A stretch of 64,000 nt of DNA from Candidatus Tepidifontimicrobium thermophilum (GCA_031459915.1 JAVKHO010000007.1:56389-120388); one strand, 5' to 3'. Counted from the stretch's first letter, positions 25,003 through 40,124 are shown. Program-made: numbers and translations. The notes: a model not told the origin generated them from the letters alone.

Positions 25003-25679
25003 AGACGGTCCTGGTCCTGGCCCCTCACCCCGACGACGCGGAGATCGCCATGGGTGGTACCATGGCCGCGCTGGTGGCGCAGGGCTGGCGGGTGGTGGTG
25101 TGCGACCTCACCGATGGCGAGCCCACCCCGGTGGGCACGCCGGAGCGGCGGCGGCGGGAGGCGGAACGGGCGGCGCGGATTCTCGGCGTGGAGCGCCAGA
25201 TCCTGGACCTGCCCAACCGTTTCCTGCTGGACGGGGTGGAGGCGCGCAAGAAGGTGGCTGCGGTGATCCGGGCGGTGCGGCCCGAGTGGCTGTTCGTGCC
25301 GTACTGGGAGGACGCCCACCCCGACCACGTCCAGGCCGCCACCCTGTGTGAGGCGGCGCGGTTCTACGCCAAGCTGACCCACACGGACATCCCGGGGGAG
25401 CCCCACTACCCGCGCCGGGTCGTGCACTTCTTCTCCACCCACTACCGCATGGTGCGGCGGCCGTCCTTCGTGTTCGACGTGAGCGAGACGCTGGAGCGCA
25501 AGATGGAGAGCCTGCGCGCGTACGAGAGCCAGTTCGGAGTTGAGCGGGGCAACTCCTGGGTCCTGGAGGCGGTGCGGGATGCCGCCCGCTACTTCGGTTC
25601 CCTGGTGGGCGTCTCGTACGGGGAGCCCTTCCTCCTGCGGGAGGAGCTCGGGGTGCGGAACCTGGAGGGGTTAGTGTGA
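24999..25679 (+). CDS. PIG-L family deacetylase, BshB1-like
   Basis: APHPDDAE, DLTDGE, DAHPDH, AYESQF, YGEPF. Confidence 0.88.
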   Translation: MKTVLVLAPHPDDAEIAMGGTMAALVAQGWRVVVCDLTDGEPTPVGTPERRRREAERAARILGVERQILDLPNRFLLDGVEARKKVAAVIRAVRPEWLFVPYWEDAHPDHVQAATLCEAARFYAKLTHTDIPGEPHYPRRVVHFFSTHYRMVRRPSFVFDVSETLERKMESLRAYESQFGVERGNSWVLEAVRDAARYFGSLVGVSYGEPFLLREELGVRNLEGLV

Positions 25680-27220
25680 CCGACGTGACCGAGCTGTCCA
25701 TCCCCACGCGCCACGGCGAGGTCCTCTGCACGCCTGAGTTCAGCCGTTGGCTGGAGCTGGCGGAAGCCACCGCCCGGCGGCTGGACGCAGCAAGCGTCTT
25801 CGGCCGGCCCCTGAGCGCTCTGCGGGCGCAGGCCCGGTCCGAGCTCGTGGGACGGGCCCAGGCCCTGCTGGGCCGCTGGGGCTTCGCGCCCCCTGAGGCC
25901 TCCCACGGTCCGTGGGTCGCCACCGGCCACCAGCCCGGCCTGTATCACCCGGGGATCTGGATCAAGACGTGGGCCGTGGACATCTGCGCGGGCCAGGGGG
26001 CGACCGGGCTGCACGTGGTGGTGGACTCCGACGAGTGCCAGTCCTGGGGTGCCCGAGTCCCGAGGCGGGACGGGACGCTGCAGGGGGTGCAGCGGACCCT
26101 CGTGGAGTGCGGCGACGGTGTTCCCTTCGAGGCGGCCCCGGTACCCGAGGAGGCCCGCTGGCGGGCCTTCTGCGCACAGCTACGGGACGACCTCGGGACC
26201 CTCGGTCTCCCGGAGCTCCTGGAGCGGGTCTCCCGGGCAGAGCAGGCGGGCCTGGAAAGCCTCTCCCGCGCGCGGCACCTGGGCGATTTCGGGGCCGGCC
26301 TGCGCAGACGGTTGGAGACGAAGCACCGGCAGGTCCGCTACTGGGAGGTGACCGTATCCGAGCTGTCGGAGACGCAGGCCTTCGGCCAGTTCGCCGCCTG
26401 GATCGCCCAGGATGCGGAGCGTTTTCGCGCCTGCCACAACGCGGCCCTGGACGAGTACCGCCGGCAGCAGGGCCTGCGCTCCCCGGCGCAGCCGTTCCCC
26501 AACCTACGGCGGGAAGGCGACTGGGTGGAGTTGCCCTTCTGGCTGGTGCGGGAGGGGAAGCGGCGGCCGGTATTCGTGCGGCCCGGAGCTCCTCCCGTGG
26601 TGTTCTGCGAGGGCAGGCCCGTAGGCGAGCTCACGGACCGTGGGCTGGAGGGCCTGCGCCCCAGGGCCCTCACCCTCACCCTGTTCCTGCGGCTTCTGGT
26701 GGCGGATCTGTTCGTGCACGGCGTGGGAGGCGCGCGCTACGACCGCGTCACCGACCGGGTCCTAGAGGAGTTCTTCGGAGTCACACCGCCGCCCTTCGCG
26801 GTCCTCACGGCCACCTTCCATCTCCCGCTGGCGCGACACGCAGATCCCCGGGAGGCGTACGGGGCTGCGCAGCGTCTGTGGCTGGACCTGCAGCACAACC
26901 CGGACCGCCACCTGGCCGACCCCGCCCAGGCGCGTCCCCTGGTGGAGGAAAAGTGGCGCTGCATCCGGGCTCTGGAGGCCGCGGACCTGACCCGGTCCGC
27001 CCGCCGGGAGCTCGCCCGGCGCATCCGGGCCATCAACGAGGCTTTGCGGGCCCACGTGCAGGACCGGATCGCTGAAGTGGAGGCGGAGCTGGAGGCGTTG
27101 CGGCGGGAGGTGCAGGAACACGAGGTCGCCGCGGACCGAGGCTACCCCTTCTTCCTGTTCGACCCCGAGGAGGTCTGCGCGCCGTTGCGGGCGCAGGAGG
27201 GAGTTCGGTGCGGCCGCTAG
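25676..27220 (+). CDS. Hypothetical protein, distantly BshC-like (putative ligase) with C-terminal coiled coil
   Basis: ATGHQPGLYHPGIWIK resembles the BshC TGQQ/H-x-LF-G-P-Y-K motif; LRPRAL...FVHGVGGARYD; ~510 aa like BshC. Confidence 0.55.
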   Translation: MTDVTELSIPTRHGEVLCTPEFSRWLELAEATARRLDAASVFGRPLSALRAQARSELVGRAQALLGRWGFAPPEASHGPWVATGHQPGLYHPGIWIKTWAVDICAGQGATGLHVVVDSDECQSWGARVPRRDGTLQGVQRTLVECGDGVPFEAAPVPEEARWRAFCAQLRDDLGTLGLPELLERVSRAEQAGLESLSRARHLGDFGAGLRRRLETKHRQVRYWEVTVSELSETQAFGQFAAWIAQDAERFRACHNAALDEYRRQQGLRSPAQPFPNLRREGDWVELPFWLVREGKRRPVFVRPGAPPVVFCEGRPVGELTDRGLEGLRPRALTLTLFLRLLVADLFVHGVGGARYDRVTDRVLEEFFGVTPPPFAVLTATFHLPLARHADPREAYGAAQRLWLDLQHNPDRHLADPAQARPLVEEKWRCIRALEAADLTRSARRELARRIRAINEALRAHVQDRIAEVEAELEALRREVQEHEVAADRGYPFFLFDPEEVCAPLRAQEGVRCGR

Positions 27221-27888
27221 ACCCCGTGGTGACGGACGCCCTGGGCCGGCGGTTCGGGGCCGTGGTGGCCCTGCGGGGCGTGGGACTCCGGGTCGGGGAG
27301 GGCACGTGTCTGCTGCTGTTGGGCCCCAACGGGTCCGGCAAGACCACCCTGCTTCGGGTGCTGGCCACGGCCTTGCGCCCTACGGAGGGCCGCGCGTGGG
27401 TGTGCGGCTACGACGTGGTCTCGGAGGGTCACCGGGTGCGGGAACTGTGCGCTTTCCTGGGGACGTCCCCAGGCGTGTACGCGGGCCTCACCGGGTTCGA
27501 GAACCTGTGCCTGGCCGCGGACCTGTGTGGCCGGCCCCGGCGGCAGGTTGCGGAGCTGCTGGGGTGGGCCGGGCTGGAGCAGGTGGCCCACAGGCTGGTA
27601 CGCACTTACAGCCTCGGCATGCGGCGGCGGCTCGCCCTGGCGCGGGTCCGTTTGCAAGAGCCCCGGGTCCTGCTCTTGGACGAGCCCTTCGTGGGTCTGG
27701 ACGAGGAGGGGACCCGGCTGGTGGGCGAGCTGGTGACGGGGATCAAGAAGCAGAAAGGCGCGGTGGTCCTGGCCACCCACGACCGGCACCGCGCCCGGGC
27801 CGTGTGCGACGCGGTGGCAGAACTGGAGTCGGGCACGCTGCTGAGCTCGGGAACCGCGGGGCTCGCAGGAGCAGTGAGCCGGGGATGA
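27208..27888 (+). CDS. ccmA: Heme ABC exporter ATPase CcmA
   Basis: GPNGSGKTT, YSLGMRRRL, LLLDEPF; ccm context. Confidence 0.85.
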   Translation: MRPLDPVVTDALGRRFGAVVALRGVGLRVGEGTCLLLLGPNGSGKTTLLRVLATALRPTEGRAWVCGYDVVSEGHRVRELCAFLGTSPGVYAGLTGFENLCLAADLCGRPRRQVAELLGWAGLEQVAHRLVRTYSLGMRRRLALARVRLQEPRVLLLDEPFVGLDEEGTRLVGELVTGIKKQKGAVVLATHDRHRARAVCDAVAELESGTLLSSGTAGLAGAVSRG

Positions 27889-28538
27889 AGGCATGGCGGC
27901 GGGTGGCGGCCGTGGCCCGCAAGGACCTTCTCCTGGAGTGGCGCGGGCGCGACGCGGTGCTCCCCGCGGGCAGCTTCGGCTTCGCAGTCCTGCTGGTGCT
28001 AGGGCTGGTGTCCGGAGGTGGGGGGGAAGCCGCACCGTCGGCGCTGTGGGTGTCCGTCCTCCTGGCGGCAGTGCTGGCGGCAGGACGCGGTGCGGACCGG
28101 GAAGGAGAGGAGGGGACCCGGGAGGTGCTGCTGCTGTACCCCGGCAGCCGCGAGGACCTGTTCTGGGGAAGGTGGCTGGCTCTGTGCGTGGTGCTGCTGG
28201 TCCTGGCTGCGGGACTGTGGTGCGCGCAGGTTCTCCTGTTTGACGCTCCAACCCGCGGGGCGGGCGTGCTGATCCTGGCGGCCCTGTTGGCTACAGCGGG
28301 GCTCGGCGCGGCGGGCACGTTGCTGGCCGCGCTGGTGGCCCACGTGCGGGCAGGACCGTTGCTGATGCCCCTTCTGTTCCTGCCCGCCACGGTTCCCGTG
28401 TTGCTGGCGGGAGTGCGGCTTTCCGAGACCGCGGCCTCCGGAGCGCCTGCGGGCCCGTGGTGGGGCGTGCTGGTGGTGTTCGACCTCCTGTTTTTGCTGG
28501 TGGGCCCCGTCCTGTTCGAGCTGGTGGTGGAGGGGTAG
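27885..28538 (+). CDS. ccmB: Heme exporter permease CcmB
   Basis: RKDLLLEWR, LMPLLFLPATVPVLLAGV; multiple TMs. Confidence 0.85.
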   Translation: MKAWRRVAAVARKDLLLEWRGRDAVLPAGSFGFAVLLVLGLVSGGGGEAAPSALWVSVLLAAVLAAGRGADREGEEGTREVLLLYPGSREDLFWGRWLALCVVLLVLAAGLWCAQVLLFDAPTRGAGVLILAALLATAGLGAAGTLLAALVAHVRAGPLLMPLLFLPATVPVLLAGVRLSETAASGAPAGPWWGVLVVFDLLFLLVGPVLFELVVEG

Positions 28539-28540
28539 GC

Positions 28541-29179
28541 TTGCGGGCGTTCGCGGTGGGAGGGACTGCGGCGCTGTTGAGCGTGGGCCTGTTCCTGGCC
28601 CTGTGGGGCTCCCCCCCGGACGCCTACCAGGGCGAGTACGTACGGATCATGTACGTGCACGTCCCTGCGGCGGTAAGCGCCTACGGGGCCGCCGCGGTGG
28701 CCTTCGGGGCTGGTGCCCTGTACCTGTGGCGGCGCGACCGGCGGTGGGACTTCGTCGGGCGCGCGGGCGCGGAGCTAGCGGCCCTGTTCTCCGGGCTGAC
28801 CCTCCTCACCGGGATGCTCTGGGGAAAGCCCGTGTGGGGCGTGTGGTGGGCGTGGGACGCCCGGCTGGTCACCACCGCGGTGCTGTTCCTGCTGTACGTG
28901 GGCTGCCTGCTGGTCCGAGATCTCGCGGACGACCCCGAGCGGGGCCGGAGGCTGTCCGCGGCGGTGGCGGTGCTGGCCTTCCTGGACGTGCCGGTGGTCC
29001 ACTACTCGGTGGTGTGGTTCCGGACCCTGCACCAGGGCCCGTCCATCAGCCTGCAGGGTGTGAAGTTGGCGCCGGAGTTCCTCCTGCCGCTGGCGGTGAA
29101 CGCCGTGGCCTACCTGGCCCTGCTGAGTGTGCTGCTGGCCGAACGGGCGCGCCTCGCGAGTCTGGAGGGGGAACGTTGA
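28541..29179 (+). CDS. ccmC: Heme chaperone-loading protein CcmC
   Basis: RIMYVHVP, WGKPVWGVWWAWDARL (WWD motif), SVVWFRTLHQ. Confidence 0.93.
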   Translation: MRAFAVGGTAALLSVGLFLALWGSPPDAYQGEYVRIMYVHVPAAVSAYGAAAVAFGAGALYLWRRDRRWDFVGRAGAELAALFSGLTLLTGMLWGKPVWGVWWAWDARLVTTAVLFLLYVGCLLVRDLADDPERGRRLSAAVAVLAFLDVPVVHYSVVWFRTLHQGPSISLQGVKLAPEFLLPLAVNAVAYLALLSVLLAERARLASLEGER

Positions 29180-29304
29180 GCCCCTGGGCGTGGGTACTAA
29201 CCGCGTACGGCTGCGCCGCCCTGCTGGTGGGCGTTTACGCCTGGCGCCTGTGGCGCCGCTTGCGGCAGGTGTCCAGGGCCAGGCTGGGAGAGGGGGAGAC
29301 GTGA
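29176..29304 (+). CDS. ccmD: CcmD-like small membrane protein (42 aa)
   Basis: MSPWAWVLTAYG...LWRRLR; overlaps both the ccmC stop and the ccmE start. Confidence 0.75.
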   Translation: MSPWAWVLTAYGCAALLVGVYAWRLWRRLRQVSRARLGEGET

Positions 29305-29711
29305 AGCGCCTACGGCTTGCTGCCGCGGTGTTGCTGGTGGTGGGTTCCCTGGGCTACGTGGTGGCCGGCGGGCTCCGGGAGGCGGTGGTGTACTACGTGA
29401 CGCCCACGGAGCTGCAGTCCAGGACCCTGGACCCCCGACGGCCGGTGCGGGTCGGCGGACAGGTAGTACCCGGCTCCCTCCGGCGAGAGGGCGGTGCGCT
29501 GCGCTTCGTGCTGTCCGACGGGCAGGCCCGGCTGCCGGTGCGGTTTGCGGGCAGCGTGGAGGGGCTGCTGGTGGAAGGGCAGGGCGCGGTGGTGGAAGGC
29601 CGGCTGGGGCCGGACGGAACCCTGGAGGCCCGCAGCGTGGTGGTGAAGCACTCGGAGGAGTACACTCCACCCCGCTCTCCGTTGCCACCCGCGGAGCGGA
29701 ACGCGCCCTGA
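29301..29711 (+). CDS. ccmE: Heme chaperone CcmE (His-type)
   Basis: YYVTPTEL, RVGGQV, EGQGAVVEG, KHSEEY (H-x3-Y). Confidence 0.92.
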   Translation: MKRLRLAAAVLLVVGSLGYVVAGGLREAVVYYVTPTELQSRTLDPRRPVRVGGQVVPGSLRREGGALRFVLSDGQARLPVRFAGSVEGLLVEGQGAVVEGRLGPDGTLEARSVVVKHSEEYTPPRSPLPPAERNAP

Positions 29712-29901
29712 GCCAGCGCGGCTGGCCCGGCGTCCACGGACCGGAAGCGCTTGACGGGCTCGGATCGGGGCACGGAAAATCGTGGCCGGACCTTCACGGA
29801 GGGGGCCGAGAGGCTCCCTCTTTGCGTGTGCAGGCCGAAGAGGAGTCCGGGCATCGGAAGTCAAAAAGACACGCCAGCTCATTTTTGATTCGGGAGGCAG
29901 G

Positions 29902-30804
29902 TTGCACCGACGGCAAGCCGGACCCCTGTGCGGCCGGCGGCCCCGCGGGGGGGCCGGCGGGTTGTTGCTGCTGGTGGCGGCGATTCTCGGCCTCGCGGGC
30001 TGCCAGCCGTACGTCGGGGTGAGCACCCCCGCCAGGGAGGCCTACCAGCCCCTGGAAGGGTTCGTGGTGCGCATGAACTTCATGCCCCGCAAGCCCAGCG
30101 CGGACGAGGGCCGCAAGATCTACGAGGCGCGCTGCGCGGTGTGCCACGGGCCCGAGGGCCGTGGGGACGGCCCCATGGCGGAGCAGCTGACCGCTCCGGA
30201 GAAAAACCCGTACACGGACTTCTTGAGCCTGTTCCGCATCCACCCCAAGACCGAGCCGCTGCCGAGTCGGCCCGCCCGCTTCAACAACCTGGACCAGATG
30301 CGGTTGAACGCGCCGTTCGCCCTGTTCGAGACTATCGCCCGGGGCCGGCCCCACACTGCCATGCCCGGCTTCCAGCATCCCGCCTACGGTGCCGTGGATG
30401 GGGGTGATCCGCGCCTTACGGACGAACAGATCTGGGACGTGCTGTTCTGGGAGTGGAGCCGGACCACGAGCCGGGACCGGCTGGCACAGGGAAGGCGGAT
30501 CTACAACCAGCTGTGCGCCAGCTGCCACGGGGTGGCGGGCGACGGGAACGGTCCCGAGGCCGCCCGGATCCGCGAGCAGGTGTGGACGTGGGCGCGGGGT
30601 GTGGGGCCGGGGATCTTCACGGACCGGGACTGGATGGCCTACCGGAAGCCCACGGAGCTGTACCAGAAGATCGCGGAGGGAGTGCAGCGGCGCGGGCTGG
30701 AGCTCATGCCCGCCTACGCGGGCAAGCTCTCGGCGGACCAGATCTGGAGCGTGGTAGAGTACCTGTGGACGTTCGTGTACACGCCGCCGCAGGACCTGCG
30801 CTAG
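29902..30804 (+). CDS. Diheme c-type cytochrome, probable lipoprotein
   Basis: Lipobox LAGC; CAVCH and CASCH, each with a distal MP motif; TTG start after GGGAGG (uncertain). Confidence 0.85.
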   Translation: MHRRQAGPLCGRRPRGGAGGLLLLVAAILGLAGCQPYVGVSTPAREAYQPLEGFVVRMNFMPRKPSADEGRKIYEARCAVCHGPEGRGDGPMAEQLTAPEKNPYTDFLSLFRIHPKTEPLPSRPARFNNLDQMRLNAPFALFETIARGRPHTAMPGFQHPAYGAVDGGDPRLTDEQIWDVLFWEWSRTTSRDRLAQGRRIYNQLCASCHGVAGDGNGPEAARIREQVWTWARGVGPGIFTDRDWMAYRKPTELYQKIAEGVQRRGLELMPAYAGKLSADQIWSVVEYLWTFVYTPPQDLR

Positions 30805-30832
30805 CTGCGGGTGCGGCAACGGAGGCGGGGCT

Positions 30833-31477
30833 GTGAACCGTCGGACGTTCCTCAAGGCGCTGAGTGCGGTGCCGGTGCTGGGGGGTCTCGGCGCCTTCCT
30901 GGCGCCGGTGCTGCGCTACCTGAAGCCGAACCTGGAGCCGGGGCTGGGGGTTCCCCAGGGGAAGGTGCCCCCGGACCTCGCGGAGGGGGACCTCCCGAAG
31001 GGGGAGCCGCTCCCCATCGCCACCCTGGAGGAGCTGCGCGAGCCCTGGTCCAGCAAGTTCTTCGTGTTCACCCAGAAGTACCCGCAGTACACGCCGGAGC
31101 TGGCCAAGGCGGCCACGGTCCCCGGGGTGGCCATCAAGCTGCCGTGGAAGTTGAGCTTCCCCGGCTACAAGGCCGGGAAGGAGCCCACGGACATCGTGGT
31201 GTTCTCCCGCATCTGCCCGCACCTGGGCTGCATCTTCAACTACGTGCCGAACTGGCGGGAGGTCACGGCGGGCTACGGCGGGTACGTGCCGCCGGAGGAA
31301 CGTCGCCACGGCCTCATGGCCTGCCCCTGCCACCTGTCCATCTACGACCCCGCGGACCGGGAGGTGCCCGGCCGGGTGCTGTCGGGACCCGCGCCCCGGC
31401 CCCCCCGCTACTTCACCTACGAGATCCGCGACGGGGTCATCGTGGTGACGGGCGCCGAGCCCGGCGGGATCGCCTAG
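30833..31477 (+). CDS. Rieske [2Fe-2S] subunit of a Rieske/cytochrome b complex
   Basis: Tat signal NRRTFLK; CPHLGC and CPCHLS boxes; GPAPRP. Confidence 0.93.
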   Translation: MNRRTFLKALSAVPVLGGLGAFLAPVLRYLKPNLEPGLGVPQGKVPPDLAEGDLPKGEPLPIATLEELREPWSSKFFVFTQKYPQYTPELAKAATVPGVAIKLPWKLSFPGYKAGKEPTDIVVFSRICPHLGCIFNYVPNWREVTAGYGGYVPPEERRHGLMACPCHLSIYDPADREVPGRVLSGPAPRPPRYFTYEIRDGVIVVTGAEPGGIA

Positions 31478-31489
31478 GGAGCCGGAGCG

Positions 31490-32638
31490 ATGTGGGACCG
31501 GTTGCGGGAGTGGTTCCGGGAGCGCAAGGAGAAGCTGGACCTTTTCGACGAGACCCAGGTCGACCGCCAGGACAACCCCCTCTACCTCCTCGGTCAGATC
31601 GTGTACTTCGCGTGGATCGCGGTGGTGGTGAGCGGGATCCTGCTCATGATCTGGTACGAGCCCACCACCCACGGCGCCTACAACTCCATCCTCCGCATCC
31701 AGCACGAGGTCCCCTTGGGCTGGCTGATCCGCGGGGTGCACAAGTACGGCGCGGACATGCTGATCCTCGCCATCACCCTGCGCATCTACCGGATGTACTT
31801 CCTGGGCGAGTACAAGCGGCCCAACGAGCTGTCGTGGATGATCCTGTTCGGCTCCCTGGTGCTGGCCATGATCTCCGGCCTCACGGGGTACCTGCTGATC
31901 TGGAACCAGCGGGCCTTCTGGGCGGCGAAGGTAGTCCTCACGGTGGCGGTGTACCTGGATGAGCTGCCCCTCATCGGGCAGACGCGGTTCGGCAGCGCCA
32001 TCGCCTTCGCCTTCCTGGGTGGGCCCGCGGAAGGGCAGGGGACTCTCACGCGCTTCTACGCCATCCACTTCGGCATCTCGGCCCTGCTGCTGGTGGCGGC
32101 GGAGATCTACTTCTACTTCACCCGGCGGCGCCGGTTCGTGTTGTCCCCCACCGCTTTGGTGATCCTGGCCCTCATGCTGGTGGTCACCAGCTACGTGTTC
32201 CCCGCGGAGATGGGCCGGCGGGCCGACCCCAACCGGACGCCGCTCCCGATCCTTTCCGACTGGTACTTCCTGGCGCTGTACCAGTACGTGAAGTACACCC
32301 CGCCCCTGTGGGCCGGGCTGGGGCCGGGTCTGCTGATCGCGTACGGGATGCTGGTGCCGTTCCTCGACCGCAGTAAGGGCCGCAGGCCGTCCGAGCGCCC
32401 CTTCTTCACCGTGGTGGGAATTATGGCCCTGACCTACTTCCTGGTGTTCACCGCTCTCATCATGTTCAACATCGCCGTGATCGGGAGGGACCCGCACGTG
32501 GTCCTGCTGGTCACCGCCGCCACCCTGGGTCTGGGCCTGGTGTTGGAGTTCCGTTACCGCCGGCGGAGGAAGCTCGCAGAGGCCGCCGCGCCGGCCCCGG
32601 CGCCGCGGGCCGCGCCGGCCCGGGCGACGGTGGGGTGA
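31490..32638 (+). CDS. Cytochrome b (b6 + subunit IV-like fused), only the bL His pair retained
   Basis: GWLIRGVH, TGYLLIWNQ, LTRFYAIH, SDWYF; Arg and Tyr at the second His positions. Confidence 0.88.
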   Translation: MWDRLREWFRERKEKLDLFDETQVDRQDNPLYLLGQIVYFAWIAVVVSGILLMIWYEPTTHGAYNSILRIQHEVPLGWLIRGVHKYGADMLILAITLRIYRMYFLGEYKRPNELSWMILFGSLVLAMISGLTGYLLIWNQRAFWAAKVVLTVAVYLDELPLIGQTRFGSAIAFAFLGGPAEGQGTLTRFYAIHFGISALLLVAAEIYFYFTRRRRFVLSPTALVILALMLVVTSYVFPAEMGRRADPNRTPLPILSDWYFLALYQYVKYTPPLWAGLGPGLLIAYGMLVPFLDRSKGRRPSERPFFTVVGIMALTYFLVFTALIMFNIAVIGRDPHVVLLVTAATLGLGLVLEFRYRRRRKLAEAAAPAPAPRAAPARATVG

Positions 32639-32642
32639 GGCG

Positions 32643-32906
32643 GTGGAGGCGGTCCGGTTCGGGATGGCTTTCGGCCTGGCGGTAGCAGGCCTGCACGGCA
32701 CCTGGCAGGCGGCGCGCCTGGCGTGGGTACAGCCCCAGCCGGAGCGGTGGCTTGTGGCGGCCGGGTGGCTGGCGGTGCTGGTGGTCTCGGCCGCGTGGGC
32801 GGGCTACCTGCTGTACGCCGCGGACCGCCGGGCGGGCCGGGTGCGTCGACGGGTCGCGGTGTACGAGCGCTGGCTGGCTTTCCAGCGAGGCGGGAGGTGG
32901 GCGTGA
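32643..32906 (+). CDS. Small 2-TM hypothetical protein
   Basis: SD GAGG, two hydrophobic segments, overlaps the next gene. Confidence 0.65.
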   Translation: MEAVRFGMAFGLAVAGLHGTWQAARLAWVQPQPERWLVAAGWLAVLVVSAAWAGYLLYAADRRAGRVRRRVAVYERWLAFQRGGRWA

Positions 32907-33106
32907 GGGAGCCAGAGCGCGGCGGCTGGTACCTGGCGGTGGCGGGCTTTCTGGCGGTACTGGCCCTGGCGTGCGTCGGCCTGATGGTGTACGGGGAGTG
33001 GTTCGACCGGCGCCTGGTGGCCTCGGGAGCCGTGGGCGTGCTGCTGGTGCTGTACGCCGTCATCGTGGTGCTGTTCCGCAAGGCGCACCTCACCGCGGAG
33101 GACTAG
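32903..33106 (+). CDS. Small 2-TM hypothetical protein
   Basis: GTG after GGGAGG, GTGA overlap; WYLAVAGFLAVLALA...VLLVLYAVIVVLF. Confidence 0.7.
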   Translation: MREPERGGWYLAVAGFLAVLALACVGLMVYGEWFDRRLVASGAVGVLLVLYAVIVVLFRKAHLTAED

Positions 33107-33107
33107 G

Positions 33108-34283
33108 GTGTACCGGCGGTTGTTGCTGAGCCTGCAGAGTGCCACCCTGCGGTTGGACACCTGGATCAACCGCGTCCTGCCGCAGGACTTCAACCCCCTG
33201 TACTACACCGGGGGGCTGTCGAACCTGTTCCTCACCATCCTGGTGGTGTCGGGGATCCTCATCTTCCTGTACTACGAGCCGAGCCTGGAGGGCGCCTACG
33301 CCTCGGTGGAGTTCCTCACCCGCGACGTGCCCTACGGGGTCGTGTTCCGCGGGATCCACCGCTACGCCGCGGACGCGTACCTGGTGGCCATCCTCCTGCA
33401 CCTGTTCCGGAACTGGTTCACGGACCGCTACCGGGAGGCCCGGGACAGCCAGTGGCTGTCGGGGATGTTCCTGCTGGTGGTGTCGGGCTTCGCGGGCTTC
33501 ACCGGCTACCTGTTGGTGTGGGACGAGCGGTCGCAGCTGCTGACGAGCCTCACGGTACAGGCCCTGAGGTCCGTCCCCCTGGTGGGAGACCGGCTCGCCC
33601 GGGTATTCCTGGGGGGCCCCGGGGTGAGCGACACCACCCTGCCGCGGTTCCTGTTCCTCCACGTGGGGCCCGCCATGACCCTGTACGTACTCCTGTGGTG
33701 GCACTACGTGCGCCTCCGCCACCCCAAGATCTGGCCCCCCTCCGTGTGGGTGCTGTTCAGCCTGGGCCTGCTGTTCATCCTCGCTTCCGCCTTGCCCGCC
33801 ACGAGCGGACGGCCGGCGCAGCCGGGCGCCTCGCCGGAGGGGTTCGCGGTGGACTGGTTCTTCCTGTGGCCGTACGTGCTGGCCCGCTGGCTGGCGCCCG
33901 GTTGGGCCCTGGCCCTGGTGGTGGCCCTGGTGGCATACGGCATGGTGGTCCCCTACACCCTGCGGGAGACTCCGGAGCAGCGGGGCGTCCGGGCCTTGGG
34001 CCAGGCGGTGGTGGTGGAGGAGAACTGCACGGGCTGCGAGCTGTGCTACTACGACTGCCCGTACAACGCCATCTACATGGTGCCGAGCCCGTACCCGGGG
34101 AAGAGCCGGGCTGCGGCCAACCGGAAGCTGCTGGCAGTGGTGGTGGACTCCCGGTGCGTGGAGTGCGGGATCTGTATCGGCGCCTGCCCCTTCGAGGCCC
34201 TGGAGTTGCCGAGGATGCTGGACAAGGACGTACAGCAGCGCATCCAGCGGGGCGCACGCGCCGCGGCCCCGGTGGGTTCCTGA
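33108..34283 (+). CDS. Cytochrome b fused to C-terminal 2[4Fe-4S] ferredoxin
   Basis: RGIHRY..LLHLFR and FLHV..WWHY (all four His); CTGCELCYYDCP and CVECGICIGACP. Confidence 0.9.
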   Translation: MYRRLLLSLQSATLRLDTWINRVLPQDFNPLYYTGGLSNLFLTILVVSGILIFLYYEPSLEGAYASVEFLTRDVPYGVVFRGIHRYAADAYLVAILLHLFRNWFTDRYREARDSQWLSGMFLLVVSGFAGFTGYLLVWDERSQLLTSLTVQALRSVPLVGDRLARVFLGGPGVSDTTLPRFLFLHVGPAMTLYVLLWWHYVRLRHPKIWPPSVWVLFSLGLLFILASALPATSGRPAQPGASPEGFAVDWFFLWPYVLARWLAPGWALALVVALVAYGMVVPYTLRETPEQRGVRALGQAVVVEENCTGCELCYYDCPYNAIYMVPSPYPGKSRAAANRKLLAVVVDSRCVECGICIGACPFEALELPRMLDKDVQQRIQRGARAAAPVGS

Positions 34284-34293
34284 GGCGAGAGCC

Positions 34294-34725
34294 ATGGCGA
34301 CGGTACCGGATCGGACCCCGCAGGCGGAGGAGGCAGCCCCCCGGGTCGTGGGGTTCCTGTGCGACTGGGCGGTACGCAGCGAGGGGCTCCTGAGCGCCGA
34401 CGACACCCTGGTAGGCATGCCGCATGTCACGGTGATCCGGGTCCCCTGCTCAGGGTTCGTCAAGCCCGGGTGGTTGGAGCTGGCGCTGCGCAGCGGCGCC
34501 GCGGGCGCCTTCGTGTGCGGTTGCCCCATGGGGGACTGCCTCAACCGGGAAGGCAACTGGATCATGGAGGATCGCATCGACCAGCTGCGGAAGCGTTTGA
34601 GCCGGCAGAAGGTGGACCCTGAGCGGGTCGCGTTCTTCGCCTTCGGCCTGCACGAGCGGGAGGACTTCCTGCGCGCGGTGGCGGAGTTCGTGGACCGGGT
34701 GCGCGGATCCGGAGGGAAGCGGTGA
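34294..34725 (+). CDS. MvhD/FlpD-family [2Fe-2S] protein
   Basis: VVGFLCDW, IRVPCSG, GCPMGDC..REGN, VDPERV. Confidence 0.85.
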   Translation: MATVPDRTPQAEEAAPRVVGFLCDWAVRSEGLLSADDTLVGMPHVTVIRVPCSGFVKPGWLELALRSGAAGAFVCGCPMGDCLNREGNWIMEDRIDQLRKRLSRQKVDPERVAFFAFGLHEREDFLRAVAEFVDRVRGSGGKR

Positions 34726-34838
34726 CGCGGTTTGGCCCGAAACGGTGGAAGACGTACCTGTGGTACGCCCTGTTCTACCTGGTGTTCTTTGCCCTGTTGC
34801 TGTTCGTGGCGGCCTTCGGTCTGGTGGCGGAGGCGTAG
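34722..34838 (+). CDS. 38-aa single-TM peptide (not in the ORF track)
   Basis: MTRFGPKRWKTYLWYALFYLVFFALLLFVAAFGLVAEA; GGAGGG SD, GTGA overlap with the mvhD-like stop. Confidence 0.7.
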   Translation: MTRFGPKRWKTYLWYALFYLVFFALLLFVAAFGLVAEA

Positions 34839-34853
34839 CGGAAGGGACACGGG

Positions 34854-36248
34854 ATGCTGGCGTGGATGTTCACCGACGAGCGATGGAGCTCCGTCCGGCG
34901 GTTCCTGTACGCGGGCGCGCTGTGGGGGATCCTGGCGCTGGCCTACGAGGCGCTGGCCGCCGCGCAGCGGGCCTGGCCGCAGGTCCTCGCGGACGTCCCC
35001 TGGGTGTCCCACGGGCGGGTGGTGGCCACCGGACAGGACCTGTGGGTGTTCGGTTTCCTGTCCCACCTCCTGGTGGGCGCGGCGCTGCGGGTGGTGGGAC
35101 AGGGCGACCGGGAGGGGCTGTGGAGCGAGCCCCTCGCGAACCTGAGCCTGTGGCTGTGGACTGTGGCGCAGGTGCTCAGCTGGTGGTGGATCTCCACGGG
35201 CTGGACCCGAGGCCGACCGCTCGGTGAGGCTCCCTGGCCGGTGGACCTGCTCCGGCTAGCGGGCGCGCTGCTTCTGTTGTGGGTGGTTCGCAACACGCTC
35301 GTCCGATCTCCCCGTAGGGACCCCGCGCTGGCCCTGGTGTTCGCGGGCTTCACCGGGCTGCCTCTGGTCCTAGTACTGGGGAAGGGCTTGTTCTGGCCCT
35401 TCGACAACCCCTACCACGGGATCCTGGACGCTCTGAGCCAGGCGTTCCTGCGGGCAGGCCTGGTCTGGCTATGGGGGGTCCCGCTGGCCGGTGGGGTCTG
35501 CCTGTACGTCCTGTCGGCCCTGACCGGCCGGCGCGGGCTTTCGGAGGGAGTGGGCTTCGCCGCCCTGTTCGGCCTGGTCAGTTTCGGGGCTCTCGCTGGG
35601 CCCGCGGAGTTCGTGTGGGGTCCGGTGCCGTTCTGGGTGCAGACCGTGGGCGCTGTGGCGCAGGGGCTGCTGGTGTTGCCGGTGGCGACGCTGCTCGTGG
35701 GTGCCGCGCGGTCGCTGGAAGGGCACTGGCAGTCCCTCGGGGACCACCCCGGTGTGGTCTTCGTGCTGGCGGGCTGGCTGGCGCTGACCTCCGGCGTGTC
35801 TTTGAGCGCGCTGGCGTCCCTCGTGGGTCCCAGCCGCGTGGTGCACCTCTCCCTGTGGGGAGAGGGGGTGCGGGTTCTGGTGCTGGGCGGCTGTGCCGCG
35901 GTGGCCGTGGGGTGTGCGTACCTGCTGACGCCACACGTGCTGGGACGCTCGCTAGCGAGCCGGGCCCTGGCCTGGCGGCATCTGTGGCTGGTGGTGGTGG
36001 CGTGGGCGCTCTCTGCGCCCGCGCTGCTGCTGGCGGGTCTGAGCCAGGGTGCGGCTTGGGCCACGGGCACGGTGCCCTTCGCTCACGCGGTACAGGCCAG
36101 CCGGCCCCTGCTGGCCGTGGCCTGGGCCGCGGCTCTGCTGGTGTGGGTCGGCCAGGCGGTGTTCGCGTGGAACCTGTTCTTGACCTCAGACTCCGGGGAA
36201 CCGGTTCCCGCAGCGGAGCAGGAGCTCCTGCCGGTGGCGGGGTCTTAG
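34854..36248 (+). CDS. cbb3-type oxidase subunit I (CcoN)-like protein lacking metal ligands
   Basis: ~12 TM; GR, GWTRGRPLGEAPWPVD, GPVPFWVQT and GLSQG..W align with CcoN; followed by a CcoO-like gene. Confidence 0.75.
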   Translation: MLAWMFTDERWSSVRRFLYAGALWGILALAYEALAAAQRAWPQVLADVPWVSHGRVVATGQDLWVFGFLSHLLVGAALRVVGQGDREGLWSEPLANLSLWLWTVAQVLSWWWISTGWTRGRPLGEAPWPVDLLRLAGALLLLWVVRNTLVRSPRRDPALALVFAGFTGLPLVLVLGKGLFWPFDNPYHGILDALSQAFLRAGLVWLWGVPLAGGVCLYVLSALTGRRGLSEGVGFAALFGLVSFGALAGPAEFVWGPVPFWVQTVGAVAQGLLVLPVATLLVGAARSLEGHWQSLGDHPGVVFVLAGWLALTSGVSLSALASLVGPSRVVHLSLWGEGVRVLVLGGCAAVAVGCAYLLTPHVLGRSLASRALAWRHLWLVVVAWALSAPALLLAGLSQGAAWATGTVPFAHAVQASRPLLAVAWAAALLVWVGQAVFAWNLFLTSDSGEPVPAAEQELLPVAGS

Positions 36249-36283
36249 GAGTGCGCCAGGCGGTGGGTCCTGGAGGTGGTGCG

Positions 36284-36742
36284 GTGAGGGATGCCGTGGG
36301 AGCTGTAGGGCGGCTGGTGGTGGCCGCGGTGGTGTGCGGGTTTGTGGTGACCGCCCTCCTGCCCGCCCTAGATCCTGCGGTCCGGACCGCGCGGGCGGCG
36401 CCCCTGTCAGCCCAGGCGGCGCGGGGGCGGTGGGTGTACGTGAGGGAGGGGTGTGTGGTCTGCCACACCCAGCAGGTGCGAGGGGTGGAGGCCCGGTTCG
36501 GCGTGGTGCGCGCGCCGGGTGACGTGGGGCAGGCTTCAACTGCGGAGCAGTACTCCGGTCAGGACCCCGTGCTGCTGGGTCGGCTGCGCCTAGGGCCGGA
36601 CCTGTCAAGGGTAGGGGCGCGTACCTCGGGACAGGAATTGCGGACGGCGCTGCTGTCGGGCACGGGGGGCATGCCCTCGTACCGGTACCTCTCGGACGCG
36701 GAGCTGGCTGACCTGGTGGCGTACCTGCTGGCGCTGCGGTAG
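36284..36742 (+). CDS. cbb3-type subunit II (CcoO/FixO)-like monoheme cytochrome c
   Basis: GRWVYVREGCVVCHTQQVR, GPDLSRVGAR, MPSY. Confidence 0.85.
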   Translation: MRDAVGAVGRLVVAAVVCGFVVTALLPALDPAVRTARAAPLSAQAARGRWVYVREGCVVCHTQQVRGVEARFGVVRAPGDVGQASTAEQYSGQDPVLLGRLRLGPDLSRVGARTSGQELRTALLSGTGGMPSYRYLSDAELADLVAYLLALR

Positions 36743-36750
36743 GAGGCGAC

Positions 36751-37296
36751 ATGGGAAACGAAACGACCACCGCGAGGCCTTCCCGCTGGCTGCTGGCGCT
36801 GTACGTGCTGCTGCCTTTGTGGGCCCTGGCGTACCTGTTCGTGGCGGGTGGGCTGGTGCAGCCGGAAATCAGGCCGGTGGCGCGGAACGTGGAGGGTGTT
36901 TCTGCAGGCACCGCCGCGGCGCCGGACGGCTCCGAGCACGTGATGGGCATCCTGGCGGTGGTCCCGGAGGACGCCAGGGACGACCAGCCCCCGCGTCCGG
37001 TGACGGACGCCATGCTGGCCCAGGCGAAGGCCCAGTACGACACCCTGTGCGCGGTGTGCCACGGACCCGAGGGACGCGGGGACGGCCCCGCGGGCGCGGC
37101 CCTGAACCCGAAACCCCTCAACTTCCACTTCCGGGCCTTTCAGGAACGGATGCCGGTGGGCGCTACCCACTGGGTGATCAAGAACGGCCTGGGCAACACT
37201 CCCCGCCGCAGCGGGATGCCGGCCTTCGGCCAGCTACCGGACGACCAGATCTGGGCCCTGGTGGAGTACGTCCGGCGGCTGGGCCGCCAGCCATGA
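36751..37296 (+). CDS. Membrane-anchored monoheme cytochrome c
   Basis: N-terminal TM, CAVCH, SGMPAF, QIWALVEY. Confidence 0.88.
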   Translation: MGNETTTARPSRWLLALYVLLPLWALAYLFVAGGLVQPEIRPVARNVEGVSAGTAAAPDGSEHVMGILAVVPEDARDDQPPRPVTDAMLAQAKAQYDTLCAVCHGPEGRGDGPAGAALNPKPLNFHFRAFQERMPVGATHWVIKNGLGNTPRRSGMPAFGQLPDDQIWALVEYVRRLGRQP

Positions 37297-38270
37297 CGCA
37301 GGCCGCGGCAGACGCCCTGGCCTCCGCCTACGCCCCGGTTCGCGAGGACCTGGAGCGGCTGCAGGACCTGCTGCGCCAGGAACTGGCGGCCCACGACCCC
37401 TTCCTCATGGAGCTGGTGTCGCATGTGCTGCATACCCGCGGCAAGATGGTGCGGCCGGCCCTGGCGTTCCTGTGCGCGCGCCTGGCAGGAGGGGGAGGGG
37501 CGCACCGTGACCTGGTGGCTGCGGCGGTGGAGCTCATCCACGTGGCCAGCCTCATCCACGACGACGTGATCGACGAGGCCGACCGCCGGCGCGGTCAGGC
37601 GACGCCCAACGCCCGGTGGGGCAACCACGTGGCGGTGTTGCTGGGTGACTACCTGTTCAGCAAGGCCTTCCACCTGCTCTCCCGAGTCGGGCGGGACGAC
37701 GTGGCGAGCCGGGTGGCCTTCGCCACCGTGCGCATGAGCCAGGCGGAGCTGCTCCAGGTCAAGTACGGCAACACCCCGCACACGGACGAGTCGGTGTACT
37801 TTGCCATCGTGGAAGGCAAGACCGCCCAGCTGGTGTCCTCCGCGTGCGCGGGAGGGGCGCTGGTGGGGGGAGGGGACGGGGATCTGGCGGAGCGGCTGGG
37901 CACCTTCGGGCTGCACTGGGGCGTGGCCTTCCAGATCACCGACGACACCCTGGATCTCACCAGCGACCCGGAAGTCCTAGGCAAGCCGATTGGCAGCGAC
38001 GTCCGGGGAGGGAAGGTCACCCTGCCCTTGATCCACGCGCTCCGCCACGCGGACGAGCAGGGGCGCCGGCGGCTGGAGAAGTGGATCCGGGCAGGCGAGC
38101 TGGCCCCGCTCCGGCACGCCCTGGAGACATCCGGGTCCTTCGCCTACGCCCTGGAGGTGGCCCGGCAGCACGCCCAGCGGGCGCTCCGCATCCTGGAGAC
38201 ACTTCCGGGAGGGCCGGAGCGTGACAGCTTGGCGGCCCTCACGGAGTTCGTGGTCTCCCGCCGCCACTAG
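37293..38270 (+). CDS. Long-chain polyprenyl diphosphate synthase (HepT/IspB-like)
   Basis: GKMVRP, LIHDDVID..RRG, GKTA, FQITDDTLD, GKVTLP. Confidence 0.92.
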   Translation: MTQAAADALASAYAPVREDLERLQDLLRQELAAHDPFLMELVSHVLHTRGKMVRPALAFLCARLAGGGGAHRDLVAAAVELIHVASLIHDDVIDEADRRRGQATPNARWGNHVAVLLGDYLFSKAFHLLSRVGRDDVASRVAFATVRMSQAELLQVKYGNTPHTDESVYFAIVEGKTAQLVSSACAGGALVGGGDGDLAERLGTFGLHWGVAFQITDDTLDLTSDPEVLGKPIGSDVRGGKVTLPLIHALRHADEQGRRRLEKWIRAGELAPLRHALETSGSFAYALEVARQHAQRALRILETLPGGPERDSLAALTEFVVSRRH

Positions 38271-38406
38271 GCCCCATTGGAGGCGTGACCCACCCGGGCG
38301 GTCGCCTGGTGGCGGCCGCGCAGCTCGGGTACACTGCCTCTCGGTGGAGGCGGTGCGGCACTGGCTGGACAGCCTGCGGACGCCCCTGGGGAGGGTGCGG
38401 GAGGCC

Positions 38407-39546
38407 ATGGTGTCGTTCGCCGTGGCCACCACCTCGCGTCACCTGGAGGCGTACCGGGAGGTGGTGGTCAGGCGGTGGCGGGCCTCCCTGCAGCGCCGCG
38501 TGGCCCGGTACGCCGAACACCCGGATCTGTCTGACCGCTGGGGGAAGCAGACGGTGGACTTGCTGGTCCAGGTGATGCGGGCCCGGGGCGAGGTGGAGCG
38601 GCTGGAGGCCCGCGACCGGGTCTTCGAGCACGCGCACCGGGTGGCCTCCGAGCAGCTGGAACTGGGGTTCAGCCTGGAGGAGATCCTGCAGGCTCTGAGC
38701 CTGCTGCGCAGCAGCCTGTCCGCCCAAGTGCAGGTGATGCTGAGCCGGCGGCTGTGGGTGGCATTCCCCCCTGACGTGATGCTGGCCACGGAGCGGGTCC
38801 ACGAGGCCATCGACCTGCAGATGCTGGCCATCGGCCAGGCCTACCTGGAGGCCCGGGACCGGGTGATCCGGGAGAAGCAGCGGGACCTGGAGGAGAGCAA
38901 CGAGAAGCTGCGGACCCTGCTGCGGGAGATGCACCACCGGATCAAGAACAACCTGCAGACCCTCGCCGACCTCCTGTACCTGGAAGCCCTCGAAGCAGGG
39001 GGAGCTGCCCGCAAGAGCCTCCTGGACAGCATCGGCCGGGTGAAGAGCATCGCCGCGGTGCACCAGATGCTGTCCGCGGACCGCATCGAGGCGGTGGAGG
39101 TACGCCGGCTGGCGGAGCGCATCGGGGAGATCATCGGGCGGGACCTGGTCCGAGCGGGCCGTGCGGTGCGCGTGGAGATCCAGGGTCCGGAGGTGTGGCT
39201 GCCGAGCAAACAGGCCACAGCCCTGGCCCTGGTGCTAAGCGAGCTGATCCACAACGCGCTGGAGCACGCCTTCCCGGACGGGCGCGGGCGGGTGGTAGTG
39301 CACCTCGGGCAGGTGGGCCAGGAGGTGTGGGTGAGGGTCCGGGACGACGGGGTGGGCCTGCCGCCGGATTTCTCCGTGGAGCGGCACGGACACCTGGGCC
39401 TGCGTATCGTCCGGGACCTGGTGAGCCGTGACCTGCGGGGCACCTTCTCCCTTCGCTCGGAGGGCGGGGCGGTGGCGGAGGTGCATTTCCAGGTGCCCGA
39501 GGCCGGGGAGGAAGTGGGGCCGGCGGTCGGGGAGGTGACGGCGTGA
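38407..39546 (+). CDS. Soluble sensor histidine kinase (HisKA_2, PdtaS/EutW-like) with RsbR-N/globin-like N-terminal domain
   Basis: EMHHRIKNNLQ, ELIHNALEHAF, DDGVG, HLGLRIV; helical N-terminus with LGFSLEEI; no TM. Confidence 0.85.
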   Translation: MVSFAVATTSRHLEAYREVVVRRWRASLQRRVARYAEHPDLSDRWGKQTVDLLVQVMRARGEVERLEARDRVFEHAHRVASEQLELGFSLEEILQALSLLRSSLSAQVQVMLSRRLWVAFPPDVMLATERVHEAIDLQMLAIGQAYLEARDRVIREKQRDLEESNEKLRTLLREMHHRIKNNLQTLADLLYLEALEAGGAARKSLLDSIGRVKSIAAVHQMLSADRIEAVEVRRLAERIGEIIGRDLVRAGRAVRVEIQGPEVWLPSKQATALALVLSELIHNALEHAFPDGRGRVVVHLGQVGQEVWVRVRDDGVGLPPDFSVERHGHLGLRIVRDLVSRDLRGTFSLRSEGGAVAEVHFQVPEAGEEVGPAVGEVTA

Positions 39547-40124
39547 AGGACCGTCTGCGCATCCTCATCGCGGACGACGAGGCCATCCGGGTCATGACCC
39601 TGAGGACCCAGCTGCGGGCGTTGGGCTTCGAAGTGGTGGCGGAGGCCACCAACGGCCGCGAGGCGGTGGAGCTGGCCGAGCGCCACCACCCCGACCTGGC
39701 CATCCTCGACATCAAGATGCCGGAGCTGGACGGGATCGCCGCGGCGCGGGAGATCACCGCCCGCGGGCCCATCCCCGTGATCCTGCTCACCGCGTACAGC
39801 GAGCCGGAGCTGGTGGAGCGGGCCACGGAGGCCGGGGTGTTCGCCTACCTGGTCAAGCCCGTGAGCGAGGAGGACCTGCTCCCCACCATCCTCCTGGCGC
39901 GGGCGCGGTTCGAGGAGTTCCGGCTCCTGCAGAAGGAGGTGGCGGACCTGCGGGAGGCCCTCGAGGCGCGGAAGGTCATCGAGCGGGCCAAGGGGATCCT
40001 CATGAAGCGGCTGGGGATCAGCGAAGCCGAGGCCTTCCGCCGCATGCAGGTGCAGAGCCAGAAGGAGAACAAGAAACTGGTGGAGATCGCCCGGGCCATC
40101 GTGACGGCCCACGGGGTGCTGTAG
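39543..40124 (+). CDS. Response regulator with ANTAR RNA-binding domain (PdtaR/EutV-like)
   Basis: IADDE, LDIKMP, YLVKP; LEARKVIERAKGILM..ISEAEAF. Confidence 0.93.
   Translation: MKDRLRILIADDEAIRVMTLRTQLRALGFEVVAEATNGREAVELAERHHPDLAILDIKMPELDGIAAAREITARGPIPVILLTAYSEPELVERATEAGVFAYLVKPVSEEDLLPTILLARARFEEFRLLQKEVADLREALEARKVIERAKGILMKRLGISEAEAFRRMQVQSQKENKKLVEIARAIVTAHGVL

Follow-up and report, generated by a model that had tools for sequence, protein, structure and literature searches.

A putative cross-wired pair of complementary cytochromes b with a cytoplasmic iron-sulfur arm in a Rieske/cytochrome b operon of Candidatus Tepidifontimicrobium thermophilum

The cytochrome bc1 of Rhodobacter can be inactivated at its quinol oxidation (Qo) site by the exchange G158W and in the branch of its high-potential heme bH by H212N, and a dimer of one G158W half and one H212N half turns over fully via electron transfer between the two low-potential hemes bL (available part of PMC4330944). 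In Melainabacteria, the accessible text of PMC6349859 notes an operon as a fusion of respiratory complexes III and IV, annotated as b6f subunits, and within that text lost heme ligands, MvhD and a heterodimer are unmentioned. The PDWF-FeS clade of cytochromes b (Kao and Hunte 2014; accessible part of PMC4122944) is fused to a 4Fe-4S domain and MvhD and has no Rieske gene in its cluster, and PMC5600118, in the portion available, assigns a clade G' to large operons whose function is unknown, and describes a subfamily K without a histidine ligand. We analyzed a 64,000-nucleotide stretch from Candidatus Tepidifontimicrobium thermophilum (GCA_031459915.1, JAVKHO010000007.1:56389-120388; hereafter the window), in which an eleven-gene run at positions 29902-37296 encodes two different cytochromes b, here b1 and b2, together with a Rieske protein, an MvhD-like protein and c-type cytochromes. 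The encoded complex falls outside the canonical bc1/b6f type and is most plausibly a natural cross-wired heterodimer with a cytoplasmic iron-sulfur (FeS) port.

Each of the eleven open reading frames (ORFs) that the initial annotation had placed in this run was recovered on the plus strand with the same boundaries, separated by gaps of -4 to 35 nucleotides, and domain and profile comparisons returned the same gene families:

29902-30804, plus strand: diheme class I cytochrome c, predicted lipoprotein (two CxxCH motifs, LAGC lipobox-like motif)
30833-31477, plus strand: Rieske protein exported by twin-arginine translocation (Tat) (CICPHLGC-type box 1, CPCHLSIY box 2)
31490-32638, plus strand: cytochrome b1 (bL ligands H84/H193, bH ligands lost, Qo motifs WNQRAFWA and ILSDWYF)
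32643-32906, plus strand: small membrane protein s1 (ratio of nonsynonymous to synonymous substitution rates, dN/dS, 0.16-0.64)
32903-33106, plus strand: small two-helix membrane protein s2 (dN/dS 0.10-0.52)
33108-34283, plus strand: cytochrome b2 with a 2[4Fe-4S] domain (four His, decayed Qo site, six helices followed by the ferredoxin domain)
34294-34725, plus strand: MvhD-like [2Fe-2S] protein (C23, C52, C77, C82; FlpD/MvhD, E-value 1.6e-25)
34722-34838, plus strand: single-helix peptide s3 (conserved C-terminal FGLxAE motif)
34854-36248, plus strand: CcoN homologue without any of the six heme/copper His ligands (COX1/CcoN-like, E-value 7e-22)
36284-36742, plus strand: CcoO-like (FixO) monoheme cytochrome c (CxxCH and distal Met retained)
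36751-37296, plus strand: membrane-anchored monoheme cytochrome c, CcoP-like (weak ccoP match, E-value 3e-5)

A canonical bc1 or b6f complex has bL, bH and Qo site on one cytochrome b, a combination found in neither b1 nor b2; the best sequence matches of both are cytochromes b6. The heme ci motif CxGG and the split into b6 and subunit IV are likewise missing; both proteins are long forms, and cysteines are absent from b1 and from the transmembrane portion of b2. The lone His pair of b1 noticed initially, H84/H193, corresponds in the alignment to the cytochrome b6 ligands of bL, and the bH positions are occupied by R98 in helix B and Y207 in helix D. Relatives were taken from the best 79 genome loci of 232 confirmed, which gave a b1 alignment of 79 rows (the window and 78 loci, with one fragment dropped). 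Both bL histidines are invariant in all 79 rows; position 98 is Arg in 78 and Lys in one, E205 is invariant (79/79), and position 207 is His in only two. The motifs SDWYF and WNQRxFWA, which represent the Qo motif and the cd1 helix, are present in 79/79 rows. In a profile search of 1.84 billion representatives, 15 clusters scored above 400 bits and were followed by a gap; the full-length ones among the top clusters all show H-R-H together with Glu. Three proteins farther away (P0164, P0166 and P0168) are also bL-only cytochromes b with this Arg/Glu combination and have a PDWY motif; P0168 has, in addition, an acidic insertion of about 300 residues. Vampirovibrionia b1 proteins (loci L191 and L193, from genomes G128 and G161, and L063, L078 and L192) carry C-terminal extensions of about 70-270 residues without a match to window proteins.

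The fusion of b2 to a 2[4Fe-4S] ferredoxin was confirmed by two CxxCxxCxxxC motifs, which follow a membrane part with the four ligands H84, H98, H185 and H199; in 67/67 aligned rows, none of the four His or of the eight ferredoxin Cys is missing. In an ungapped match to Rhodobacter sphaeroides cytochrome b (2fyn; query 9-67 to 142-200), L145 of b2 corresponds to G158 and H185 to H198. Position 145 is Leu, Ile or Val in 66/67 rows and the Qo motif reads xDxF; the Qo site of b2 is blocked or decayed. An AlphaFold2 model of b2 (mean predicted local distance difference test score, pLDDT, 81.8) contains helices A-F with the ferredoxin domain in place of helix G; together with the expected cytochrome b topology, this model would put the domain on the cytoplasmic side, as had been proposed. 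The sequence around bH of b2 (bH2) is conserved yet non-canonical, and in Vampirovibrionia a His of b2 (YYHGA) stands beside the heme ci position, in 17/67 rows.

The losses are complementary. The two Qo-forming segments are conserved at 0.90-0.91 in b1 vs 0.55-0.57 in b2, and five other segments are alike in the two proteins (0.68-0.80). As read from these alignments, the natural pair reproduces the engineered cross-inactivated pattern. When b1 was modeled with b2 as the initial annotation had suggested, the score was 0.68, compared with 0.00 for the best of three controls; this score may reflect likeness to solved bc1/b6f homodimers, and the pairs b1-b1 and b2-b2 were not among the controls. 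The mark applied to such scores is reached by 116 of 157 solved complexes and by 2 of 215 mismatched pairs. Runs agreed in at least 92% of contacts with a partner pLDDT of at least 76, and the predicted interface is formed by the end of helix A and by helix D of both chains, the usual dimer face. The earlier proposal of a heterodimer with its Qo site on b1 and an electron path bL1-bL2-bH2 is thus supported by complementary conservation, by the dimer model and by the engineered precedent, and we consider it probable that b1 and b2 pair into a heterodimeric complex. In a quick tree of b1, b2 and other cytochromes b, each type forms one group (support 100) and the types are joined with a support of 88; as this joining support is only 88, duplication within the operon was not adopted as the origin of the pair.

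Conservation of the cluster, whose absence had been named beforehand as one refuting outcome, was found in both Sysuimicrobiota and Vampirovibrionia. The best 79 of the 232 loci come from Sysuimicrobiota/CSP1-3, Melainabacteria (Vampirovibrionia), Fimbriimonadaceae and records assigned to Anaerolineae. Gene neighborhoods were counted in 159 genome and metagenome loci that partly overlap and are not independent, each count covering the loci with enough flank. The Rieske gene adjoins b1 in 142/143 loci, b2 lies at most 2.5 kilobases (kb) downstream of b1 in 116/117 (in the single exception, b2 is on a different contig), and 109/110 have MvhD. An orthologue-level b1 match occurs in 70/80 genomes of the window's phylum, Sysuimicrobiota (68/78 when the unpublished genomes G014 and G019 are left out), and in 87/151 sampled genomes of Vampirovibrionia, and the cultured Vampirovibrio chlorellavorus has the operon (L078). 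Because gene order and residue pattern recur in several phyla, chance is ruled out for the cluster. In the window's genome, which is 96% complete, no second cytochrome b of this family and no second MvhD was found. Of the co-occurrence that had been anticipated, both cytochromes b and MvhD hold together across lineages; the ligand-less CcoN does not belong to this core.

MvhD residues C23, C52, C77 and C82 align with the four [2Fe-2S] ligands of 5odc chain D, and the b2 tail and MvhD match consecutive parts of an HdrA2 model, its C-terminal module. The proposed link between MvhD and b2 was supported by longer relatives in which a single polypeptide combines cytochrome b, ferredoxin and MvhD (33 matches, including Turneriella parva, P0315, E-value 6e-87), and physical contact of b2 and MvhD is supported because these relatives fuse the two. 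In Anaerolineae, a fused match is found in 17/151 genomes at 19 places. Ten of these places (L196-L205) were examined: heme-copper oxidase subunit I is at most five ORFs away in 10/10, a blastp match to the window's Rieske protein is absent from 10/10, SCO and copper-type P-ATPase genes lie nearby, and 4/10 have a CxxCH motif. One further protein (P0340) combines a b2-type cytochrome b with a heme-copper oxidase subunit I domain. HdrA, hydrogenase and Flx genes were not found in the cluster. The genome's sHdr and hydrogenase genes are on other contigs, among them a sHdr-LbpA sulfur-oxidation cluster (G000:C10:38900-58490, L087) that encodes TusA, DsrE, a GcvH-like protein, HdrC/B/A, ETF and lipoate ligase, followed by a molybdopterin oxidoreductase; its sHdrA is short (357 amino acids). 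MvhD as the missing partner of this sHdr is not supported, since the two are on different contigs and the gene set of the cluster is constant across lineages.

The Anaerolineae neighborhoods, together with the ccmA, B, C and E genes directly upstream of the respiratory cluster in the window, would fit a b2-ferredoxin-MvhD reductase that works from inside to outside and is merely co-transcribed with b1. Such a reductase could serve oxidase or cytochrome c assembly, by CcoG-like copper reduction or by thiol or heme reduction, or act as an overflow wire for ferredoxin; CcoG is a two-cluster cupric reductase. It would, however, leave the bL electron of b1 without an exit in spite of the invariant bL ligands and Qo motifs, the b1-b2 model passes its controls, and Sysuimicrobiota clusters persist without any oxidase gene inside. 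We regard it as the least probable of the readings weighed here.

It is attractive to propose instead that the cluster encodes a heterodimeric menaquinol:cytochrome c oxidoreductase in which quinol would be oxidized at b1. One electron would pass via the Rieske protein to the diheme cytochrome c and on to a terminal oxidase. The Rieske protein has its Tat signal, both cluster-binding boxes and the disulfide cysteines, and the diheme cytochrome, whose gene is upstream of the Rieske gene in related loci too, is likely its electron acceptor. The other electron would run along bL1-bL2-bH2 to a single inner site on b2. Menaquinone would be re-reduced there, near bH2, by this electron and a second one supplied either by the following turnover or by reduced ferredoxin via MvhD and the 2[4Fe-4S] domain; the main task of the ferredoxin-MvhD arm would be to deliver electrons from the cytoplasm to this site. 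The genome contains menD, and no match to MqnA/D of the futalosine route was found in it. Precedents for input are Mitchell's original donor 'd' and the entry of ferredoxin electrons at heme cn in b6f (PMC5600118, available part), and in MvhADG-HdrABC of methanogens MvhD is on the path from the donor to an HdrA cluster (accessible text of PMC5861303), which favors the same direction, as does the resemblance of the b2 tail plus MvhD to the C-terminal module of HdrA2. The fused relatives without a nearby Rieske gene also favor input, because no bifurcation could drive output there. We give a cross-wired Q-cycle with an input-dominated FeS arm about an even chance and favor it over output.

Several points weigh against this input reading, beyond the possible bias of the dimer score mentioned above and the single-event origin of the CcoN/cupredoxin pattern described below. 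Genes for 2-oxoacid:ferredoxin oxidoreductase, which would accord with input, are present in 80/80 Sysuimicrobiota and 151/151 Vampirovibrionia genomes, but these counts have no discriminating power, as the genes also occur in genomes that lack the cluster. In b2, helix D is followed by a short loop, Arg, Ser or Thr and not His stands five residues past the bH ligand, a heme ci cysteine is missing, and no equivalent of the Asp of the bc1 quinone reduction (Qi) site is evident in the alignment. The loss of bH in b1 would be merely permitted by the input model and is required by a model in which electrons leave through the arm. The Rieske signature is S-Y in 66/77 and S-F in 11/77 sequences, which a published rule reads as above or near 260 mV (accessible part of PMC4122944). 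The rule is approximate and the CHLS motif here is atypical; combined with a menaquinone pool, the predicted high potential suggests spare driving force, as has been argued for anammox complexes (PMC12954380, portion available).

These points bear on the opposite proposal, that the complex is an obligately asymmetric complex III without a Q-cycle. In it, b2 would have no working Qi site, and bifurcation at b1 would drive one low-potential electron per pair via bH2 and the cytoplasmic FeS wire to a cytoplasmic acceptor, for instance a disulfide, a ferredoxin or, via a flavoprotein, NAD(P)+. Such a design has to avoid short-circuiting to quinone, which is exactly what removal of bH from b1 achieves; b2 shows no evident canonical Qi residues; and the pairing of a predicted high-potential Rieske protein with menaquinone resembles that of the anammox complexes for which NAD(P)H production has been proposed (available text of PMC12954380). 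The sHdr-LbpA cluster and a group 3b-like hydrogenase in the genome describe a metabolism that reverse electron flow could help. However, this is the sole such complex detected in an aerobe, in which half of the respiratory electrons would be forced into the cytoplasm. With estimated values of about +300 mV for Rieske, about -75 mV for menaquinone and a membrane potential of about 150 mV, NAD(P)+ would be marginal and ferredoxin unreachable, and a flavoprotein partner is not conserved in the cluster. The initial annotation mainly had electrons exit to the cytoplasm instead of completing a normal Q-cycle; the engineered equivalent completes a Q-cycle, and we consider such an exit unlikely. If it is true, a phylum widespread in soils and hot springs, and the aerobes most closely related to Cyanobacteria, would respire mainly through a quinone-based bifurcating reductase.

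An intermediate possibility is that the dimer is cross-wired and otherwise runs an ordinary Q-cycle, with an FeS arm whose net flux is small and which serves to buffer electrons in place of heme cn or to sense redox state. No extra arm is needed by the engineered cross-inactivated dimer, and in the absence of a heme ci cysteine another store for the first electron would help (PMC5600118, in the part available). Yet the eight ferredoxin Cys are retained in 67/67 rows and MvhD in nearly every locus, a three-cluster chain to the cytoplasm exceeds the needs of a buffer, and MvhD is a docking and relay subunit in solved complexes. This makes a buffer or sensor improbable compared with the cross-wired Q-cycle fed by the arm.

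The CcoN-like protein had been read as a catalytically dead cbb3 scaffold belonging to the complex. The dead CcoN is real: residues 11-451 align with Pseudomonas stutzeri CcoN (3mk7, E-value 3e-22) with 0/6 His ligand positions retained, and all 27 close sequences (the window's and 26 homologues) lack all six His. Its place as a core component was overstated and is rejected, as it is limited to 12/80 genomes of the phylum (the window's, 10/10 of its family and one of another family) and other lineages have a six-His version. None was found in 68 genomes from four other families of the phylum with the window's protein as query, nor outside this family among the 27 matches of a word-limited search. 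Sixteen operon copies of CcoN keep six of six His and lie upstream, in Vampirovibrionia, Fimbriimonadaceae and one further record. A pseudogene was also rejected, given open frames in 12/12 genomes, dN/dS values of 0.09-0.30 and stranded RNA coverage; by its substitution pattern the ligand-less CcoN is relaxed but maintained under purifying selection (compared with a dN/dS of 0.05-0.08 for b1). The accompanying CcoO has its CxxCH and distal Met, the latter missing in one (L008) of ten ligand-less loci. Among 96 loci that extend intact from MvhD through the prenyl synthase gene, a dead CcoN occupies the slot after s3 in 17 and a cupredoxin does so in 43; 36 loci have neither, and 0 have both. 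This exclusivity follows family lines and so counts as roughly a single evolutionary event rather than 96. Outside the cluster, the genome encodes two A-family oxidases with a subunit II without CxxCH and a third oxidase-like gene. In this family, the cofactor-less CcoN is probably a membrane scaffold by which CcoO and the CcoP-like cytochrome are retained to relay electrons to CuA oxidases encoded elsewhere, a role that we infer from this one family-level event. Database sources label the protein a cbb3 oxidase, and it would be miscounted as a high-affinity oxidase.

Of the two small proteins between b1 and b2, which had both been described as two-helix peptides, s2 has two helices and s1 only one by hydropathy scan. 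At least two hydrophobic ORFs separate b1 and b2 in 66/67 loci, and a short hydrophobic ORF matching s3 follows MvhD in 54/57; by its position, s3 may be the helix that follows MvhD. That s1, s2 and s3 are split pieces of the fused relatives was rejected, with no phmmer match below an E-value of 0.1. An orphan Rieske copy elsewhere in the genome (G000:C14:32872-33433; L080:8871-9776, minus strand) has 88% DNA identity and its Tat signal in another frame (frameshifted), and is likely a decaying duplicate.

Two further features flank the run:

29751-29780, plus strand: sigma-70-like promoter candidate (sole site detected; 0.2 expected in shuffles)
37293-38270, plus strand: polyprenyl (heptaprenyl-type) diphosphate synthase (overlaps the preceding stop codon)

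The synthase gene comes after the cluster in 96 loci and likely serves quinone side-chain synthesis. In a hot-spring metatranscriptome (X6), 151 reads in a single orientation cover 29.5-39.5 kb at a depth of 0.2-5.5, with about 5% of the run sampled. They span the ligand-less ccoN and run on into the synthase gene; no reads map to 28384-29535, and the first are in bin 29536-29919. The raw RNA runs X4 and X5 yielded 5 and 2 reads, and X1, which consists of contigs, carries no information on transcription. The operon is real, conserved and transcribed. Downstream of the synthase, window positions 38221-40124 encode a HisKA_2 histidine kinase, whose gene the RNA reads reach, and an ANTAR response regulator. 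Upstream, 21831-29711 contains hemB, a hemL-like gene, a glycosyltransferase, a PIG-L deacetylase and a 514-amino-acid protein without a Pfam match, followed by the ccmA, B, C and E genes.

The claimed novelty holds in part. The operon and the b-ferredoxin-MvhD module are each in print separately; a complementary cytochrome b pair or heterodimer was not described in the full-text literature searched, whose coverage leaves out most subscription papers. Soo et al. 2017 reportedly mention two cytochrome bc proteins. The word 'cytochrome' is absent from the main text of the Sysuimicrobiota paper. SDWY has 0 occurrences in the main text and searched supplement of PMC4122944 (one supplement and the figures were outside the search), and SDWY, Melainabacteria and MvhD had no match in the searched text and supplements of PMC5600118, figures aside. 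The available portions of PMC5317091, PMC11214002, PMC4451040, PMC4040986 and PMC11604079 contain nothing on this architecture.

The in vivo role of bL-bL transfer has so far been argued from engineered mutants, and the apparent natural cross-inactivation makes this question testable. Through the FeS arm, complex III would have its own opening to the cytoplasm, which would serve either for entry, as Mitchell's original second donor, or as a bifurcating exit. Because this operon supplies aerobic Vampirovibrionia with their complex III, its mechanism bears on the rise of respiration beside Cyanobacteria.

Among the known systems, the anammox Rieske/cytochrome b complexes (accessible part of PMC12954380) share the cytoplasmic FeS chain, menaquinone with a high-potential Rieske protein and a proposed bifurcation to a low-potential acceptor, but within that text their modeled form is a membrane homodimer that contains heme cN and ends in a flavoprotein, with neither MvhD nor a division of roles between cytochromes b. 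MvhD of HdrABC-MvhAGD (5odc) has the same four Cys, whereas the MvhD here is not beside hydrogenase or HdrA. Homology to CcoN of the cbb3 oxidase CcoNOP (3mk7) extends over the full length and the CcoO heme motif is shared, but the CcoN here is devoid of heme and copper ligands. The PDWF-FeS clade resembles b2 and the adjacent MvhD in domain order, four His, WDER, a short loop after helix D and an xDWF motif; there, all is one fused chain, whereas here the module is split, with MvhD as a separate gene, and is accompanied by a Rieske protein and by a cytochrome b that has bL only. The 'fused complex III/IV' of Melainabacteria is the same operon, with Vampirovibrionia orthologues of b1, b2, MvhD, s3, Rieske, CcoN and CcoO, except that their CcoN keeps six His and lies upstream. 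With bc1, b6f and Firmicute complexes, the locus shares a Tat-exported Rieske protein, the cytochrome b fold (Foldseek matches to bc1 cytochrome b), a c-type acceptor, a Qo motif variant on b1 and the predicted helix A/D dimer face; unlike them, it has two different cytochromes b, neither complete alone, no heme ci cysteine, an SDWY motif and a cytoplasmic FeS arm. The engineered Rhodobacter bc1 likewise has one half with a Qo site and without bH, and one with bH and a bulky residue at G158, but in the present complex this pattern appears natural and fixed by selection, and the half with bH carries a ferredoxin domain.

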